This document shows, piece by piece, positions 1 through 4,724 of a stretch of 4,724 bases of DNA (its first letter is position 1; each line of letters begins with the position of its first letter). The notes under the pieces are model-generated. The model saw nothing but the letters and a program-made list of their open reading frames with translations. It ran no database searches and was not told the DNA's origin. Where the stretch lies: IMG/VR virus record IMGVR_UViG_2671180422_000001. One strand, 5' to 3'. Source of the stretch: a virus (lineage: Duplodnaviria; Heunggongvirae; Uroviricota; Caudoviricetes). A program made the position numbers and the translations under genes.

Positions 1-9
1 GAATGCCAT
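1..9 (-). CDS. tfa: First three codons (Met-Ala-Phe) of a probable tail fibre assembly (Tfa-like) gene, truncated by the window edge
   Basis: ATG (complement of 7-9) overlaps the stf stop as TAATG; ATG-GCA-TTC gives MAF, the N-terminus I recall for lambdoid Tfa proteins; position immediately downstream of stf is the canonical one. Only 9 nt are visible. Confidence 0.3.
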
Positions 10-3000
10 TATGCAAGCCTCACAATATAGTTAAATGCGATGTTTTTGACGGTGTTTTCCGCGTTACCAGCAGCGTTAACGGTGATGGTGTGTCCATGTG
101 AGCCAATCGCAACGGAGTGCGTATGAGCACCAATACCGACAGTATGTGCATGTGCGCCTGCGCTTGCAGCAGTGCCGGACAGCGAGTGGGTATGAGCACC
201 ATCTGATGATGTCTTCCCTGCATTACGAGTCTGGCCACTACCGCTTGTTGTGCTCATAATCCCCGCGCTTGGATTTGAAATCGCGGTATAACCATTAGGG
301 AAAATGCTCGTGTTCGTGCCACCAAATGCACCGGAACTCTTGTGTTGGTGCGCACCGGCACTATTTGCAGTCCCGCTAATACTATGGGTATGCGCCCCGG
401 TGTTATTCGTGGATTTGGTTCCGTAATCAAACGACGATGTGTTTTTCGTCCCCAAATCCGTACTGGATGCGCTGGCGCTGTGGGTGTGCGATTTAATGCC
501 GTCCTGTTCCTGAGATAATACGGCTCGACCACTGGCAGGTTTGCCCTTAATCGTCCAGCCACGCATATCAGGGATCACGCCTGACGGATAAGCGGCTGCA
601 AGTTTTGGGTAGGCAGATTTGTCAAAAGTCTGCCCCTGCATCAGGGCATAACCAGACGGAACGGTATCTGATGGCCACGGGATTGGTGCACCGACTGGAT
701 AAAACTCTGCAGGAGGATGAGCCGAGGTGTAAAGCTGCGCCCAACCACTTTCAAAACCATAACCGTCTCTTGAAGAACGGTAGAACAGACCACCATTTCT
801 GTAATGCGCCTTCATCTGCAGGGTCCGGCAACTTCCGACTCCGGTATAGAAGTTAACCAGAATATAGCTGTCGCCAGAGCGGGTGACATTGTAAGCGCCT
901 GATTCGGCATTCCATGGAACGCCCCCATCCGCATCGGCATACGCATCCGTTGCTCTTCTGGCAAAAGCAGCCACATGCGCGGCGGTTAAAGTGATATCAG
1001 TAGAACCATCAAATGGAACACCGGATATTTTTCTTGCAGTCTGAAGTTTTGTAGCAGTTGCAGCATTACCAGTGGTGTTCTGATTACCCGTAGTGTTTAC
1101 ACCTGGAAGGTTAATATTTGCAGAACCGTCGAAAACAACTCCACCGATAGATCTTGCCGTCTGCAATTTCGTGGCTGTACTTGCATTACCATTCAATGAA
1201 CCAGTTAATCCACCTGTAACAGACAACGGACCTGAAACTGTTCCTCCGGTTGTTGGCAGTGCTCCAATATCTAACGGCGTCGGTTTCTGATGTGTGCTAT
1301 ACATCGTATAAACAACACCATCGGTAACGCTGGAAGGCTTACTCGCTGAATATGTTGGCGATGTATAAATAGAAACTGTCGCATTTGCAGTACAATCCCA
1401 ATGGATATTTACACGAGTCGCATAATTGCCAATCTCAACGTAAATATCATATGTATCGCCGGATGTGTTGATCCAGGCGAAATTCGTTAATCCGACGGCT
1501 GTACGCTTCCACAAAGCCCCGGTAATTCCTTTGGGGTTTCCATTGCCTGCTCGTAGAACCAGTTCTGAAATGCCTGCCTGATGTGGGGAACCGACGTTGT
1601 AACCAGCGCCACCAATCAATGCGATGTAAACGATGGAACTCGCTTGTGGCATGGTAACCGTAGCCAGTTTGAACCACCCAGCCCCGCCAGAGAAAGACAT
1701 CGTTACTGAATTTAAAGTACCAATATCTTTCGGCGTTAATGTTATATCCGCAGTCAGTGCTTTTCCGTTAACTTTTCGGTTAGATGGCACCCTGCTATTC
1801 GCATTGTCATTGGCTGCTTTAACTGCTTTTGGCGTTGCGGCCAGCGATTCACTGGTGCTATCAACAGCACTGCTAAGTTTCACAACACCTTTAGTTGTAA
1901 GGCTTGCGTCTTCCATCGCAACTGCACCGGCAATCTCTTCAGCACGATCAGCAGCAGCTTCCGCACGGGTCGCAGCGGATTCAGCAGCAGTTTTGCTCTG
2001 AGATGCTGCCGTCGCACTGCCTGCCGCCTCTGTTGCTTTCGTGGATGCCGTCGTGGCGCTGCCCTTCGCTGCTGACGCCTGTCTGGTCGCCTCATCTTTT
2101 GAAGCAGACGCAGATGATGCCGATGACGCTGCCGAACTGGCGGACGATGCGGCTGCCGTTTTTGAGGATTCTGCACGGGTTTCCGACGCTTTCGCATTCG
2201 TTTCGGATGTCTTCGCTGCGGAAGCAGACCTCGCTGCTGCGCTGGCCTGTACAGCGGCTTCGCCAGCCTTCGTTGTGGCTGTTGAAGCGGACGATGCAGC
2301 ACTTTCTGCCGATTTTCCGGCGGCGGTGGCACTGGCTGAGGCCTGCCCGGCACTTGTTGACGCGGCACTGGCAGACGACGCAGCCGCTGTTTTTGAGCCT
2401 GCCGCAGCCGAGGCGCTCTGTCCCGCTGCCGTTTCAGAAGACCTGGCGTTTGTCTCAGACGTCTTTGCCGCCTTCGCGGAATTGCCTGCCGCCGTTGCCG
2501 AGGAAGCGGCACTACTGGCGCTTGATGATGCGTTCGTTTCTGATGATTTCGCTGCCTCTTTTGAGGCCGCCGCATCCCGGGCTGAGGTGGCTGCTTCTGA
2601 CGCCTTCGTGGTCGCGGCGGATGCAGAAGTGGCTGCTGATTGTTGTGACGCTGCCGCATTCGTTTCTGACGTTTTCGCCGCAGCGGCACTGGTAGCTGCC
2701 GCGCTTTTTGAGGACTCTGCAGCAGCAGCACTTTTCGATGCTTCACTGGCCTTTGTTGATGCCGTTCCTGCGCTGGAAGATGCTGACTGAGCCGACGACG
2801 CGGCCTGTCCGGCTGACGTGCTGGCTGCGCGTGCTGAGCCTGCAGCATCAGTCGCATGGGTTACCTCCTGTTCCTGTGGTTTAAACCCATTCTGGTTTTG
2901 GCTAGATTGAAAACGTGCCGGATAAAGAATCTGCATTTCGCTGATTTCACCCTTAAAAAAATTGGCCAGACGTTCTGCAAGATCGATAGATGGAACTTGT

Positions 3001-3110
3001 TCCAGTCTTTCAATACGACTCAGCGTCGCTGGATTGACCTGAACGCCAGCAGCAACATGCTGCAAAGTAAATCCGTGCGCCTTACGCACATTCCGTAATG
3101 GTGATTGCAT
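9..3110 (-). CDS. stf: Chimeric ORF: Cro/XRE-type HTH segment (aa 1 to ~85) fused in frame to a lambda-Stf-like side tail fibre (aa ~86-1033)
   Basis: Uninterrupted 1033-codon ORF with ATG at 3110-3108 and GGAGG (complement of 3115-3119) 4 nt upstream; stop TAA is the complement of 9-11. N-terminus [43 protein letters not shown] fits the Cro/C1 HTH pattern. Residues ~86-400 are Ala/Ser/Thr-rich with repeated KTSETNA motifs; two [25 protein letters not shown] tail-fibre repeats at aa 642-706; C-terminus GAPIPWPSD...[23 protein letters not shown]...[15 protein letters not shown]...[11 protein letters not shown] matches my recollection of the lambda Stf / T4 gp37-type His-rich tip. No search was run. 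Confidence 0.85.
993..1187 (-). repeat. Two copies of a ~25-aa phage tail-fibre repeat ([25 protein letters not shown])
   Basis: Reverse complement of 1113-1187 encodes [25 protein letters not shown] and of 993-1067 encodes [25 protein letters not shown]; this motif is characteristic of the phage tail-fibre repeat family. Confidence 0.65.
1911..2855 (-). repeat. Low-complexity Ala/Ser/Thr-rich coding repeat region of the tail-fibre shaft, with reiterated KTSETNA-type units
   Basis: Translation aa ~86-400 is >80% A/S/T/G/K/E; K(T/S)SETNA recurs at aa 146-152, 188-194, 216-222 and 300-306 (e.g. 2655-2675, 2193-2213); near-identical nucleotide strings gcattcgtttcNgaNgtYttcgc recur. GC-rich and repetitive, producing long shadow ORFs on other frames. 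Confidence 0.75.
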
Positions 3111-3207
3111 ATGACCTCCACATATTGCGTGATGAGCATATTATTTCACGCAAATATTTTGCGCAAGTTGATTTGCTTAACGCGCAATAAAGAAATGTAA
3201 TAAACGC
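3111..3207. promoter_or_regulatory. Divergent promoter/operator region (OR-like) between the cro::stf ORF and the repressor gene
   Basis: 97-bp gap between divergent starts. Inverted repeat TTGCGTGA (3125-3132) / TCACGCAA (3146-3153); CGCAAAtatTTTGCG (3149-3163); palindrome TTGCGCAA (3159-3166); GCGCAA again at 3182-3187. Leftward promoter candidate: -35 TTGCGC (complement of 3161-3166), 17-bp spacer, -10 TAATAT (complement of 3138-3143). Rightward candidate: -35 TTGCTT (3173-3178), 17-bp spacer, -10 TGTAAT (3196-3201), placing the transcription start at about the repressor ATG. Confidence 0.55.
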
Positions 3208-3900
3208 ATGAACATAGGAAACCGAGTCAGACAACTTCGCCAGGCGAAGAACATGAAAATCGCCGATCTCGCTGAAGCAATAGGAGTGGATGCGGCGAAT
3301 ATCTCACGCCTGGAAACAGGTAAGCAGAAACAATTCACTGAACAAGCCCTGAGTAATATTGCCAGGAGCTTAGGTGTTGATATTGCAGATCTCTTTACCT
3401 CAGACGTCAAAAGCAATACTGTATGTAAAAACAGTATTAGTGAGGATGTTGCGCAGGTGAAGGATGTATTCCGTATTGAAATGCTGGATGTCAGTGCCAG
3501 TGCGGGAAATGGCCTTATCCAGGGCGGTGATGTCATTGATGTGATTCATGCCATTGAATACAGAACTGATAATGCTGTATCGATGTTTGGCGGACGGCCA
3601 GCCAATCACATTAAAGTTATCAACGTTCGTGGGGACAGTATGTGTCCAACCATTGAGCCAGGAGATCTCATCTTCGTTGATGTCAGTATCAATCAGTTTG
3701 ATGGAGATGGTATCTATGTATTTGGTTTTGATGATAAAATTTATGTCAAACGACTGCAAATGATACCTGACAAACTACTGGTGATTTCTGATAACCAGAT
3801 TTACCGTGAATGGGGAATTACCAGCGAAAATGAACACCGGTTTATGGTCTTTGGAAAGGTCTTAATCAGCCAGTCACAAACCCTTAAGCGACACAATTAA
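3208..3900 (+). CDS. cI/LexA-like phage repressor: N-terminal XRE-type HTH plus C-terminal S24 (LexA/UmuD-type) autopeptidase domain
   Basis: 230-aa ORF, stop TAA 3898-3900. HTH IGNRVRQLRQAKNMKIADLAEAIGVDAANISRLETGK; candidate Ala99-Gly100 cleavage site (SAS-AG-NG, 3502-3507); catalytic Ser144 in VRGDSM (codon 3637-3639) and Lys181 in YVKRL (codon 3748-3750), with the same Ser-Lys spacing (37 residues) as I recall for LexA. No Shine-Dalgarno before the ATG, consistent with a leaderless transcript. Confidence 0.85.
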   Translation: MNIGNRVRQLRQAKNMKIADLAEAIGVDAANISRLETGKQKQFTEQALSNIARSLGVDIADLFTSDVKSNTVCKNSISEDVAQVKDVFRIEMLDVSASAGNGLIQGGDVIDVIHAIEYRTDNAVSMFGGRPANHIKVINVRGDSMCPTIEPGDLIFVDVSINQFDGDGIYVFGFDDKIYVKRLQMIPDKLLVISDNQIYREWGITSENEHRFMVFGKVLISQSQTLKRHN

Positions 3901-3920
3901 CCCTTACCTCCTCATCAATT

Positions 3921-3945
3921 AGCCACCCAAAGGTGGCTTTTCATT
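3921..3945 (+). terminator. Rho-independent terminator downstream of the repressor gene
   Basis: AGCCACC (3921-3927) caaa GGTGGCT (3932-3938), a 7-bp GC-rich stem with 4-nt loop, followed by TTTTCATT (3938-3945). Confidence 0.6.
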
Positions 3946-3959
3946 ACCCTTTAAATTGC

Positions 3960-4008
3960 ATATCTCGCAACAAAAACACTTGCATAATGCGCAACTTCAT
4001 TTTATCTT
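3960..4008 (+). promoter_or_regulatory. Candidate second operator/promoter cluster (OL/PL-like), rightward
   Basis: The OR half-site recurs: CGCAA at 3966-3970 and GCGCAA at 3989-3994, within TTGCATAATGCGCAA (3980-3994). -35-like TTGCAT (3980-3985), 17-bp spacer, -10-like TATCTT (4003-4008). Hexamers are weak matches; this is inference. Confidence 0.25.
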
Positions 4009-4418
4009 TCTTTCCAGACAAACAAACAAGGTACTAACAAAATTTGGTTGTAACACGGCGTATGGCACATGCGTCGTTAGCGGTCTGGGGACGTTAAAGG
4101 GGACAATCCACTCCTTGCTCGGGCAAACAAACCAGGTAGCCGGAATGTGCAAGTCAATGATGATGCTGATAAGACGCCTAACCAGCGTGGCGATTCGGTT
4201 TGACGCCTGGGAAGAGACCAGGGTGCAACGATGAGGGCATTTATGGAGCCGCGACAAAGTGTGGTGCTGTAACTGGCTAAGTGCTCTCAGCGTTGTGGTA
4301 ATCCGCGAAATGGCGCGGCGGTAAGTATGGCGGGGTTACTCTTTCCCCGTTGAGGACACCGGATTGTCAGGTTGACCATACGCCTGAGTGACAACCCCAC
4401 CACAACAGCCACTGCTTT

Positions 4419-4465
4419 GGCGGTACCAGTTTGTACCCTTGCTTCCGGCTGGTACCGCTCTTTTT
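4419..4465 (+). terminator. Candidate rho-independent terminator (plus-strand only)
   Basis: GCGGTACCAG (4420-4429) pairs perfectly with CTGGTACCGC (4449-4458), extendable by two G-U pairs; loop ~15 nt; followed by TCTTTTTAC (4459-4467). No A-tract upstream, so unidirectional. Confidence 0.45.
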
Positions 4466-4554
4466 ACAAAACAGAGAAGAGCATCACCGGACGACGGGCT
4501 CATAACCCAATCCATCCGGGCGGCTGCCACCGCAGGTGTTCTTCTCTGTTTTGT
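4466..4554. repeat. Perfect 15-bp inverted repeat ACAAAACAGAGAAGA / TCTTCTCTGTTTTGT flanking a 59-bp spacer
   Basis: Arms at 4466-4480 and 4540-4554 are exact reverse complements (15/15); flanking bases extend the pairing imperfectly (CACC 4485-4488 with GGTG 4535-4538; UUUUU 4461-4465 with GGAGA 4555-4559 as RNA). Begins right at the T-tract of the preceding terminator and ends 49 bp upstream of the next ORF start. Confidence 0.6.
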
Positions 4555-4602
4555 GGAGAAACTAACCGACCTTACAGGGTCGATATGATGAGGAGCAGCA
4601 AA

Positions 4603-4724
4603 ATGGCTAGCGAACGCAGTACTGATGTGCAGGCATTTATCGGGGAGCTGGACGGCGGCGTATTTGAAACCAAAATCGGCGCAGTTCTCAGTGAAGTCGC
4701 TTCCGGTGTGATGAACACGAAAAC
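4603..4724 (+). CDS. 5' end of an ORF of unknown function (MASERSTDVQAFIGELDGGVFETKIGAVLSEVASGVMNTK...), continuing beyond the window
   Basis: ATG at 4603 preceded by AGGAG (4591-4595) at 7-nt spacing; frame open to the window end. Two further in-frame ATGs at 4585 and 4588 lack a comparable RBS. I do not recognise the product. Confidence 0.45.
   Translation, partial: MASERSTDVQAFIGELDGGVFETKIGAVLSEVASGVMNTK

Follow-up and report, generated by a model that had tools for sequence, protein, structure and literature searches.

We analysed a 4,724-nucleotide (nt) stretch of DNA, hereafter the window, from the IMG/VR virus record IMGVR_UViG_2671180422_000001 (Caudoviricetes). The window covers the junction between the immunity and early-left regions in a defective lambdoid prophage. 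The leader of its early-left operon carries an intrinsic terminator, T (4420-4465, plus strand), and, from the very next base, a three-way-junction RNA, Y (4466-4554, plus strand). Together, T and Y are a conserved, unannotated leader RNA module, a real observation that is far from chance.

The immunity regions of mEp460 and PhiR47_1 are the matches to the right part of the window (2861-4724), and the tail fibres of mEp332, ev099 and phi458 those to its left part. A 1,033-amino-acid open reading frame (ORF) on the minus strand (9-3110) starts at the cro start codon and continues in frame into a tail-fibre gene, with the junction at about 2861-2869. We regard the prophage as defective because a deletion has fused the two genes in this way. 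The plus-strand ORF at 3208-3900 is a cI-like (XRE/S24) prophage repressor gene, annotated as an XRE family regulator in an identical locus and as cI in the phage matches. Behind it, on the same strand, two OL-like operators, TTGCATATCTCGCAA (3956-3970) and TTGCATAATGCGCAA (3980-3994), were read by eye, with the TTGCG..CGCAA motifs that lie between cI and cro as the comparison; with them goes a weak pL-like promoter with a -35 element TTGCAT (3980-3985) and a -10 element TATCTT (4003-4008). A consensus promoter scan did not report this promoter (3956-4008) at its thresholds. The operator-like repeats and the weak promoter after cI suggest that pL fires rightward across a non-coding stretch. 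No convincing ORF was found in 3901-4602, where the short ORFs include 4388-4588 (plus strand) and 4336-4530 (minus strand), both of which span T and Y. The leader runs for about 600 nt from the pL-like promoter to yfdP, the first early-left gene, whose Shine-Dalgarno sequence GAGGAG (4590-4595) and start codon (ATG, 4603) open the last plus-strand feature of the window (4590-4724). The gene is placed by the annotation of an identical Escherichia coli locus, in which position 6404 corresponds to 4603 of the window and the early-left operon reads yfdP-yfdQ-yfdR...xis-int. The same layout occurs in mEp460, SfV and ST64B.

Structure of the terminator and the three-way junction

T consists of a stem (4420-4432 with 4446-4458) and the U-tract UCUUUUU (4459-4465). 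A repeat finder reports the core of its hairpin as a perfect 10-base-pair (bp) repeat, in which GCGGTACCAG (4420-4429) pairs with CTGGTACCGC (4449-4458); RNA folding lengthens the stem to 13 bp and gives the hairpin alone -19.1 kcal/mol. The 5' arm of a second inverted repeat, ACAAAACAGAGAAGA (4466-4480), starts at the base after the U-tract and has a perfect 15-nt complement at 4540-4554. This is the longest perfect inverted repeat in the window for loops of up to 100 nt (60 dinucleotide-preserving shuffles reached maxima of 8-11 bp), and the repeat finder extends its arms to 25 nt at 84% complementarity. An earlier note, made from the letters of the window, had described a terminator abutting such a repeat, and its coordinates proved exact.

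That note had also proposed folding the region as RNA. The fold of 4415-4565 (151 nt) has an energy of -72.4 kcal/mol (z = -7.9, 200 dinucleotide shuffles), and the T hairpin and the big stem coexist in both the minimum-energy and the centroid folds. The joint fold is 7.8 kcal/mol better than the T and Y parts summed. In the minimum-energy fold, the U-tract bases 4461-4465 (plus strand) lengthen the big stem to a helix of about 25 bp by pairing with GGAGA (4555-4559), an extension that the note had anticipated; the equivalent alignment columns (5-9 with 125-129) are U-A or U.G in most relatives.

Y itself, as defined by its own fold (-45.5 kcal/mol, z = -7.3), a consensus fold, pair counts and a covariance model, is built from three helices. 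The closing helix, P1, pairs 4466-4485 with 4535-4554 over 20 bp, of which the 15-bp arms are the outer part. P2 (4487-4519) reads CCGGA.GA.GGG, loop CUCAUAA, CCC..UC..UCCGG, and P3 pairs 4520-4523 with 4530-4533. Directly after P1 stands GGAGAA (4555-4560, plus strand), which is present in every aligned variant, including two that have no upstream U-tract. With 43 nt separating it from the yfdP start codon and none 5-12 nt behind it, GGAGAA is not the ribosome-binding site of yfdP.

To assess conservation, 57 non-redundant variants were picked from a motif scan of IMG/VR; the alignment holds 51 sequences, and pairs were counted over 50 distinct sequences. Across the 34 pairs of P1, P2 and P3, 95.5% of cells are paired, compared with 41-51% after a shift of the partners by 1-3 columns. 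Double changes occupy 86 cells, compared with 28.5 +/- 3.7 in shuffles, and none of 500 shuffles reached 86. Nine pairs have changed on both sides. Those in P1 include CG/AU, GC/CG and AU/GC, and one pair in P2 (A4491:U4515 in the window) exchanges GC for AU. Compensatory change in the arms, which the earlier note had listed as a check, is thus present: P1 alone has six pairs with changes on both sides and 95.3% of its cells paired, and exceeds all controls. The perfect 15 bp are specific to the lineage of the window, as 32 of the 50 distinct relatives are mismatched at the pair equivalent to 4476:4544.

Two wobble pairs identify the strand. U4484.G4536 is near-invariant, and the pair equivalent to A4468:U4552 is G.U in 15 sequences; because both would be A.C on the opposite strand, Y is a structure of the plus-strand RNA. 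The covariance model, R1, which was built from 32 variants of Y, scores Y at 116 bits on the plus strand and at 46 bits on the minus strand. We conclude that Y is a real plus-strand RNA structure kept by compensatory change.

The size of the element varies among relatives: P3 ranges from 14 to about 40 nt, the P1 arms lie 39-65 nt apart, and total lengths of Y are 102, 103, 104, 106, 123, 124 and 127 nt. Because these lengths are not multiples of three apart, Y has no conserved reading frame. A protein-coding role was therefore rejected, and possible start codons of some relatives, read by eye, also lie in differing frames. Searches against Rfam returned nothing in 3900-4724 (whole window at E<=1; 4380-4475 at E<=10) and thus no family for Y, and a scan of a related leader for transfer RNA (tRNA) and transfer-messenger RNA (tmRNA) found none. 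We also compared the leader motifs CACCACAAC and UGCUGUGUGUAGUC with the Y arms across variants by eye, as candidates for an immunity pairing of the P4 type, and saw no covariation.

Position and distribution of the module

In about 52 of the 57 variants, P1 is directly preceded by a GC-rich hairpin (-12 to -33 kcal/mol) and its 5-7 U. The hairpin at this position takes at least five unrelated sequences (GGCGGUACCAG.., GCGGCAUC.., GUCGGCGUC.., UGCCCAUC.. and CUGGCGGCC..), and T is a genuine intrinsic-terminator module that is conserved in position, not in sequence. The distance between the U-tract and P1 is 0 nt in the window and most relatives, and one group has a 6-nt spacer. Among the departures from this arrangement, relative L063 has a hairpin without U's, and in relative L091 Y lies about 25 nt after a pL-like operator and promoter block with no terminator between them. 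In SfV-type phages, similarity to the window begins exactly at the T hairpin (4417-4420), and therefore differing upstream regions, which would contain the seeds of a small RNA (sRNA) ending at T, are joined to a common module of T and Y.

In some relatives (L037, 4385-4600 on the minus strand; L009, about 1200-1330), a second long stem farther upstream has its own preceding terminator hairpin and U-tract, so that a single leader has two terminators with a long stem directly behind each. Within the upstream stem of L037, the interior includes a sequence similar to a tRNA T-arm, GGTTCGATTCC, but neither ARAGORN nor Rfam reports a tRNA or tmRNA. Loci of the L038 type look recombinant, with the upstream terminator joined directly to Y.

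A BLAST search of 4400-4600 against phage genomes found the unit once per genome in mEp460, cdtI, Stx2-converting phages, SfV, SfII, SfIV, ST64B, phiNP, a Klebsiella phage, LLS and others. Y stands directly upstream of the first early-left gene in every inspected case; in most cases this is a homologue of yfdP, but other genes also occur there (in F1055, one annotated as recombination-associated). Functional phages of Escherichia, Shigella, Salmonella, Klebsiella and Citrobacter carry it. More than 120 further loci came from the motif scan of IMG/VR. A scan of a genome collection placed Y in Kosakonia, Enterobacter and Citrobacter genomes, and all four Enterobacteriaceae loci tested with R1 were real (E. 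coli, Citrobacter, Enterobacter and Kosakonia); the pattern used for that collection was too degenerate, and most of the 120 loci returned were chance matches in GC-rich genomes.

A 101-nt unit is present in 2,491 of 5,426 complete E. coli genomes (46%), with a median of one and a maximum of five copies, or about one per prophage; EHEC strains such as O157:H7 PV15-279-like genomes are among the carriers. Y is thus a structured RNA that is found in nearly half of the complete genomes of this species and has no Rfam family, and RefSeq leaves the unit unannotated or gives it spurious ORFs labelled hypothetical protein. The earlier note had considered that the unit might be a common dispersed repeat with no positional link to terminators. 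The counts per phage and per bacterial genome, together with the same leader context throughout, show otherwise. When 70 loci were scanned with model R1, each over up to 14 kb around Y, every locus gave one strong match, and all other matches had E = 0.14 or worse. The ends of the repeat do not coincide with the mosaic junctions among relatives, which are found upstream of T. In E. coli K-12, prophage CPS-53 (L253) lacks T and Y upstream of yfdP.

The dicF locus of prophage Qin

The leader segment at 4292-4406 (plus strand), which includes CACAACA (4401-4407), aligns near-identically by eye with the stretch just upstream of dicF in the K-12 prophage Qin (2252-2368 of the Qin locus, L252). The T hairpin aligns with the dicF hairpin, with UUUGGCGGUAyCAGUUU in common. 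The homology of the leaders covers 4292-4465, and T is homologous to dicF, whose terminator is known from experiments, in its position and in the 5' half of its hairpin. The DicF seed, UUUCUGGUGAC, which pairs with ftsZ, xylR, pykA and manX, is missing in the window together with the 19 nt that hold it; CACCACAACAGCCACUGC stands there instead. The Rfam DicF model (RF00039, gathering score 48 bits) has no match in the window at E<=1, nor in 4380-4475 at E<=10, and the K-12 dicF control scored 76.7 bits; the best relative, L037, has a weak match of 16.6 bits on its terminator hairpin. Because RF00039 does not match, we describe the RNA of the window as an sRNA located where dicF lies and leave it outside the DicF family. 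From the sequence comparison, T is the terminator and 3' module of this putative sRNA, the 5' (seed) part of which is different.

The likeness extends to the flanks. In Qin, the DicF U-tract is followed after a gap of 2-3 nt by a 21-bp stem (L252 2443-2463 with 2575-2596) that has a multibranch interior and stops at the ribosome-binding site of dicB. According to passages of PMC5069750 that cite Faubladier 1990, the 53-nt form of DicF results from termination and the 72-nt form from RNase III processing of the full-length messenger RNA (mRNA). By arithmetic, the 72-nt form would end 19 nt beyond L252 2435, at 2454, in the middle of the 5' arm of the 21-bp stem. A 190-nt DicF precursor is lost in an rnc mutant (PMC10448788), and its 5' end would fall at about 2246-2251 (the 3' end at 2435-2440 minus 190), in the 3' arm of an upstream Qin stem (L252 2173-2258). 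Folding and alignment with Qin reveal a comparable stem in the window, Y' (4225-4296, plus strand), with a 5' arm GCAACGAUGAGGGCA (4225-4239) and a 3' arm GUGCUCUCAGCGUUGUGG (4281-4298). Y' is the positional homologue of the Qin stem at which RNase III would cut to make the 190-nt precursor. The arms of the two stems differ in a compensatory way, GAGGGCA:UGCUCUC in the window and AAGCGCA:UGCGCUU in Qin, and R1 scores stems of this type weakly (6.2 bits in the window, 13.2 bits in Qin). The Qin leader thus has long RNase III stems on either side of its sRNA, and the window has the same layout with a different downstream stem.

Overall, both leaders lie beside a cI/cro-like immunity region (dicA/dicC in Qin) and belong to operons transcribed away from a cI-like repressor gene (dicA in Qin). 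Both have, in order, a long stem at the site of the mapped upstream RNase III cut, the near-identical stretch of about 4292-4406, an sRNA terminator hairpin, and a stem of 20-21 bp within a few bases of the U-tract that ends just before the first downstream gene. They differ in the absence of the DicF seed and of an RF00039 match from the window, and in the downstream genes, which are yfdP-yfdQ-yfdR in the window and dicB in Qin. Y closes a compact junction with a conserved P2, whereas the Qin stem closes a 110-nt multibranch interior. Also, the base of the Qin stem reaches the dicB Shine-Dalgarno sequence, whereas the GGAGAA of the window is remote from the start codon. The minimum-energy fold of Qin pairs the DicF U-tract (L252 2435-2440) with GAGG of this Shine-Dalgarno sequence (2598-2601) at the base of the long stem. 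Judging from this modelled fold, RNase III cleavage in Qin might also unmask the dicB ribosome-binding site.

The joining of different seeds to a common T and Y suggests a family of prophage sRNAs with swappable seeds. The sRNAs of the AgvB and AsxR type carried by prophages (PMC4104026) are similar in having a conserved 3' terminator module with interchangeable seeds, as the mosaic junction at 4417-4420 indicates for the window, and the window seed shares with them CACAACA, the consensus target of the GcvB R1 seed region (PMC4104026). They differ in that the window sRNA lies in an early-left leader, not downstream of pR', and the Rfam AgvB and AsxR models do not match it. CACAACA lies 13 nt upstream of the T hairpin and recurs in the P1 5' arm of many relatives (ACACAACAGA), and the P1 3' arm (CUGUUGUGU) resembles the GcvB R1 region. 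The idea of a GcvB sponge found no support, as the duplex of the window seed with K-12 GcvB has -23.1 kcal/mol, compared with -25.5 +/- 3.4 for shuffled seeds.

According to a paper of 2016, phage databases gave no hits for DicF or DicB (PMC5069750). We observe dicF-position sRNA modules in many sequenced, apparently functional phages (including mEp460, SfV, ST64B, LLS and phiNP), in which the seed is too diverged for BLAST or the Rfam DicF model. Y thus links the early-left leaders of living lambdoid phages with the much-studied dicF locus of K-12, and the design of a terminator followed by a processing stem appears as a conserved, modular unit.

Candidate functions of the module

On the basis of the observed structure, strand, covariation, fixed position, dicF homology and the terminator-then-long-stem layout of Qin, we favour a reading in which T ends an sRNA at the dicF position and the closing helix of Y serves as an RNase III site. 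We give this reading, which is drawn by analogy with Qin, a probability of roughly 55%. Polymerases from pL that stop at T would yield the sRNA or its precursor. In read-through RNA, P1 and the U-tract:GGAGA pairs would form a double helix of about 25 bp, or two turns. RNase III would cut this helix, generating a second, slightly longer 3' end of the sRNA and detaching the mRNA of yfdP and the following genes from the structured leader, with a new 5' end just upstream of GGAGAA and of H3, a small hairpin (4565-4584) described below. RNase III needs a helix of about two turns, and P1, at 20-25 bp, has this length; for a dicBF-type processing stem we looked for at least 20 bp, and P1 has 20 bp, or 25 bp with the U-tract:GGAGA pairs.

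The leader of the N gene of phage lambda offers a second parallel. In it, a large hairpin of the pL leader has promoter-proximal RNA signals on one side and, on the other, the site where ribosomes bind for the first early-left gene; RNase III cleavage there reportedly alters the 5' end of the mRNA. The lambda leader differs from the window in having nutL and N and in the absence of an sRNA terminator before the hairpin; the check on a sequence relation consisted of the negative Rfam scan. Specialists should not be surprised by termination combined with RNase III processing, for which Qin and lambda are known precedents.

Several points weigh against the RNase III reading. Cleavage of Y, and any effect that it might have on yfdP expression, are extrapolated from these parallels. 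Y and the downstream stem of Qin have no sequence relation (R1 9.7 bits, E = 0.32), so that architecture and position carry the argument for RNase III. For Qin, the cleavage positions are themselves arithmetic from published RNA lengths, not primary mapping data, and public K-12 RNase III maps are uninformative for Y because the CPS-53 of K-12 does not contain it. Most relatives have one or two mismatches in P1. P2 is near-invariant and GGAGAA invariant, although RNase III requires neither; the invariance of P2 was partly imposed by the search pattern, and BLAST matches, which use no pattern, also centre on the P1 5' arm and P2. This conservation leaves room for a further function of Y.

Such a function might even be the principal one. 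Y may be a structured RNA whose P2, P3 and GGAGAA serve as a protein-binding site, as a stabiliser of the mRNA 5' end or as part of the 'termination-mediated immunity' of SfV, with RNase III cutting incidental or absent. The (near-)invariance of P2 and GGAGAA would fit, as would the freely varying length of P3, since peripheral elements of functional RNAs often vary in this way. The immunity of SfV through a non-coding RNA and transcription termination has been published, to go by its citation for superinfection immunity in PMC3475682, and may bear on this region. We nevertheless consider such a role doubtful: there is no candidate partner or ligand, Rfam has no matching family, no covarying complementarity was seen by eye between the leader motifs upstream of T and the Y arms, and the Qin parallel already explains the layout. 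Alternatively, Y could act in cis on the polymerase or the transcript and supply the early antitermination or anti-polarity function that is missing in lambdoid phages without N (SfV, ST64B, mEp460, LLS and phiNP), a proposal that we regard as improbable. In its most specific form, Y would modify RNA polymerase as an analogue of HK022 put and bring about processive antitermination of the early-left operon, and it would then be a second put-like system, structurally unrelated to put. No N gene is annotated at the head of the operon in the Y-bearing phages mEp460, SfV, ST64B, LLS and phiNP, and a put-like mechanism has been speculated for LLS, which has no N homologue (PMC12315714). Like HK022 putL and putR (PMC9378689), Y is a structured, 70-100-nt RNA from the early leader of lambdoid phages without N, and in L091 it is promoter-proximal, as putL is. 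P2 and GGAGAA are also conserved far beyond the needs of a plain helix. However, neither sequence nor fold is alike: the putL sequence (PMC9378689) shows no similarity to Y, R1 finds nothing in the HK022 immunity region (L011), and put consists of two side-by-side stem-loops (about 70 nt; U28 and G35 are among the conserved residues), whereas Y is a closed three-way junction. Copies of put lie behind both early promoters, on the left and the right, whereas the 70 loci have a single Y and no copy on the pR side. In about 52 of 57 loci Y lies directly behind a strong terminator, which it could not suppress. HK022 put suppresses terminators that lie behind it and depends on the beta' zinc-binding domain; a simple consensus scan, which also missed T (the loop of T is above its limit), found no strong intrinsic terminators downstream in yfdP..int and so lends no support. 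Finally, the homologous locus in Qin has a stem with an unrelated interior at the equivalent place. We thus consider a put analogue unlikely.

The earlier note had itself offered two explanations, both of which lose their footing. It saw in the repeat two alternative contexts for the same U-tract, in the manner of an attenuator or antitermination switch in which the extended big stem sequesters the U-tract and blocks termination. The potential for U-tract:GGAGA pairing is kept in most relatives, which speaks for a switch. An antiterminator, however, must form before the terminator is completed, and here the 3' arm of P1 and GGAGA lie 70-95 nt beyond the release point and are untranscribed at the decision; because the partner of the U-tract is about 95 nt past the release site, the switch fails. 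Moreover, a single minimum-energy fold accommodates both the T hairpin and the extended stem, and a repeat search showed no competing antiterminator that overlaps the 5' half of T. GGAGAA also persists in L063 and L091, which have no U-tract; this is a weak point, as L063 at least looks like a recent derivative. A switch is very improbable on these grounds. The other explanation was an element acting as DNA, whether bound by a regulator, used for recombination or forming the termini of a miniature inverted-repeat transposable element. The repeat is perfect over 15 bp in the lineage of the window, which speaks for such an element, but the wobble pairs are valid only in plus-strand RNA, the spacing of the arms is variable (39-65 nt), the genomes have a median of one copy, always in the same gene context and about one per prophage, and the mosaic junctions are not at the repeat ends. 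We find an element of this kind hardly credible.

Between the GGAGAA of Y and the ribosome-binding site of yfdP, H3 (4565-4584, plus strand) was identified as a small hairpin, which a structure scan also gives when read on the minus strand. Its sequence differs among relatives (CGACC..GGUCG, GGCGG..CCGCC or GCGCC..GGCGC), and its loop mostly contains GCA (UUACAG in the window; UUGCAG, UGGCA and UGUGCAGA in relatives). Some versions of H3 (GGCGGTGGCAGC) are loosely like the ops element GGCGGTAGnnTG.

The only Rfam matches in the window, three for isrG and all below threshold (20-31 bits; gathering score 100), fall in 1946-2703 (plus strand), inside the tail-fibre coding region and on the strand opposite to the gene. 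They are probably GC-rich repetitive coding sequence, not an sRNA. In the CPS-53 prophage of K-12, several direct repeats (GACGGGTCAGATTTTGA / GATGCGTCAGATTTTGA; L253 4400-4525) precede yfdP and resemble iterons or repeated binding sites.

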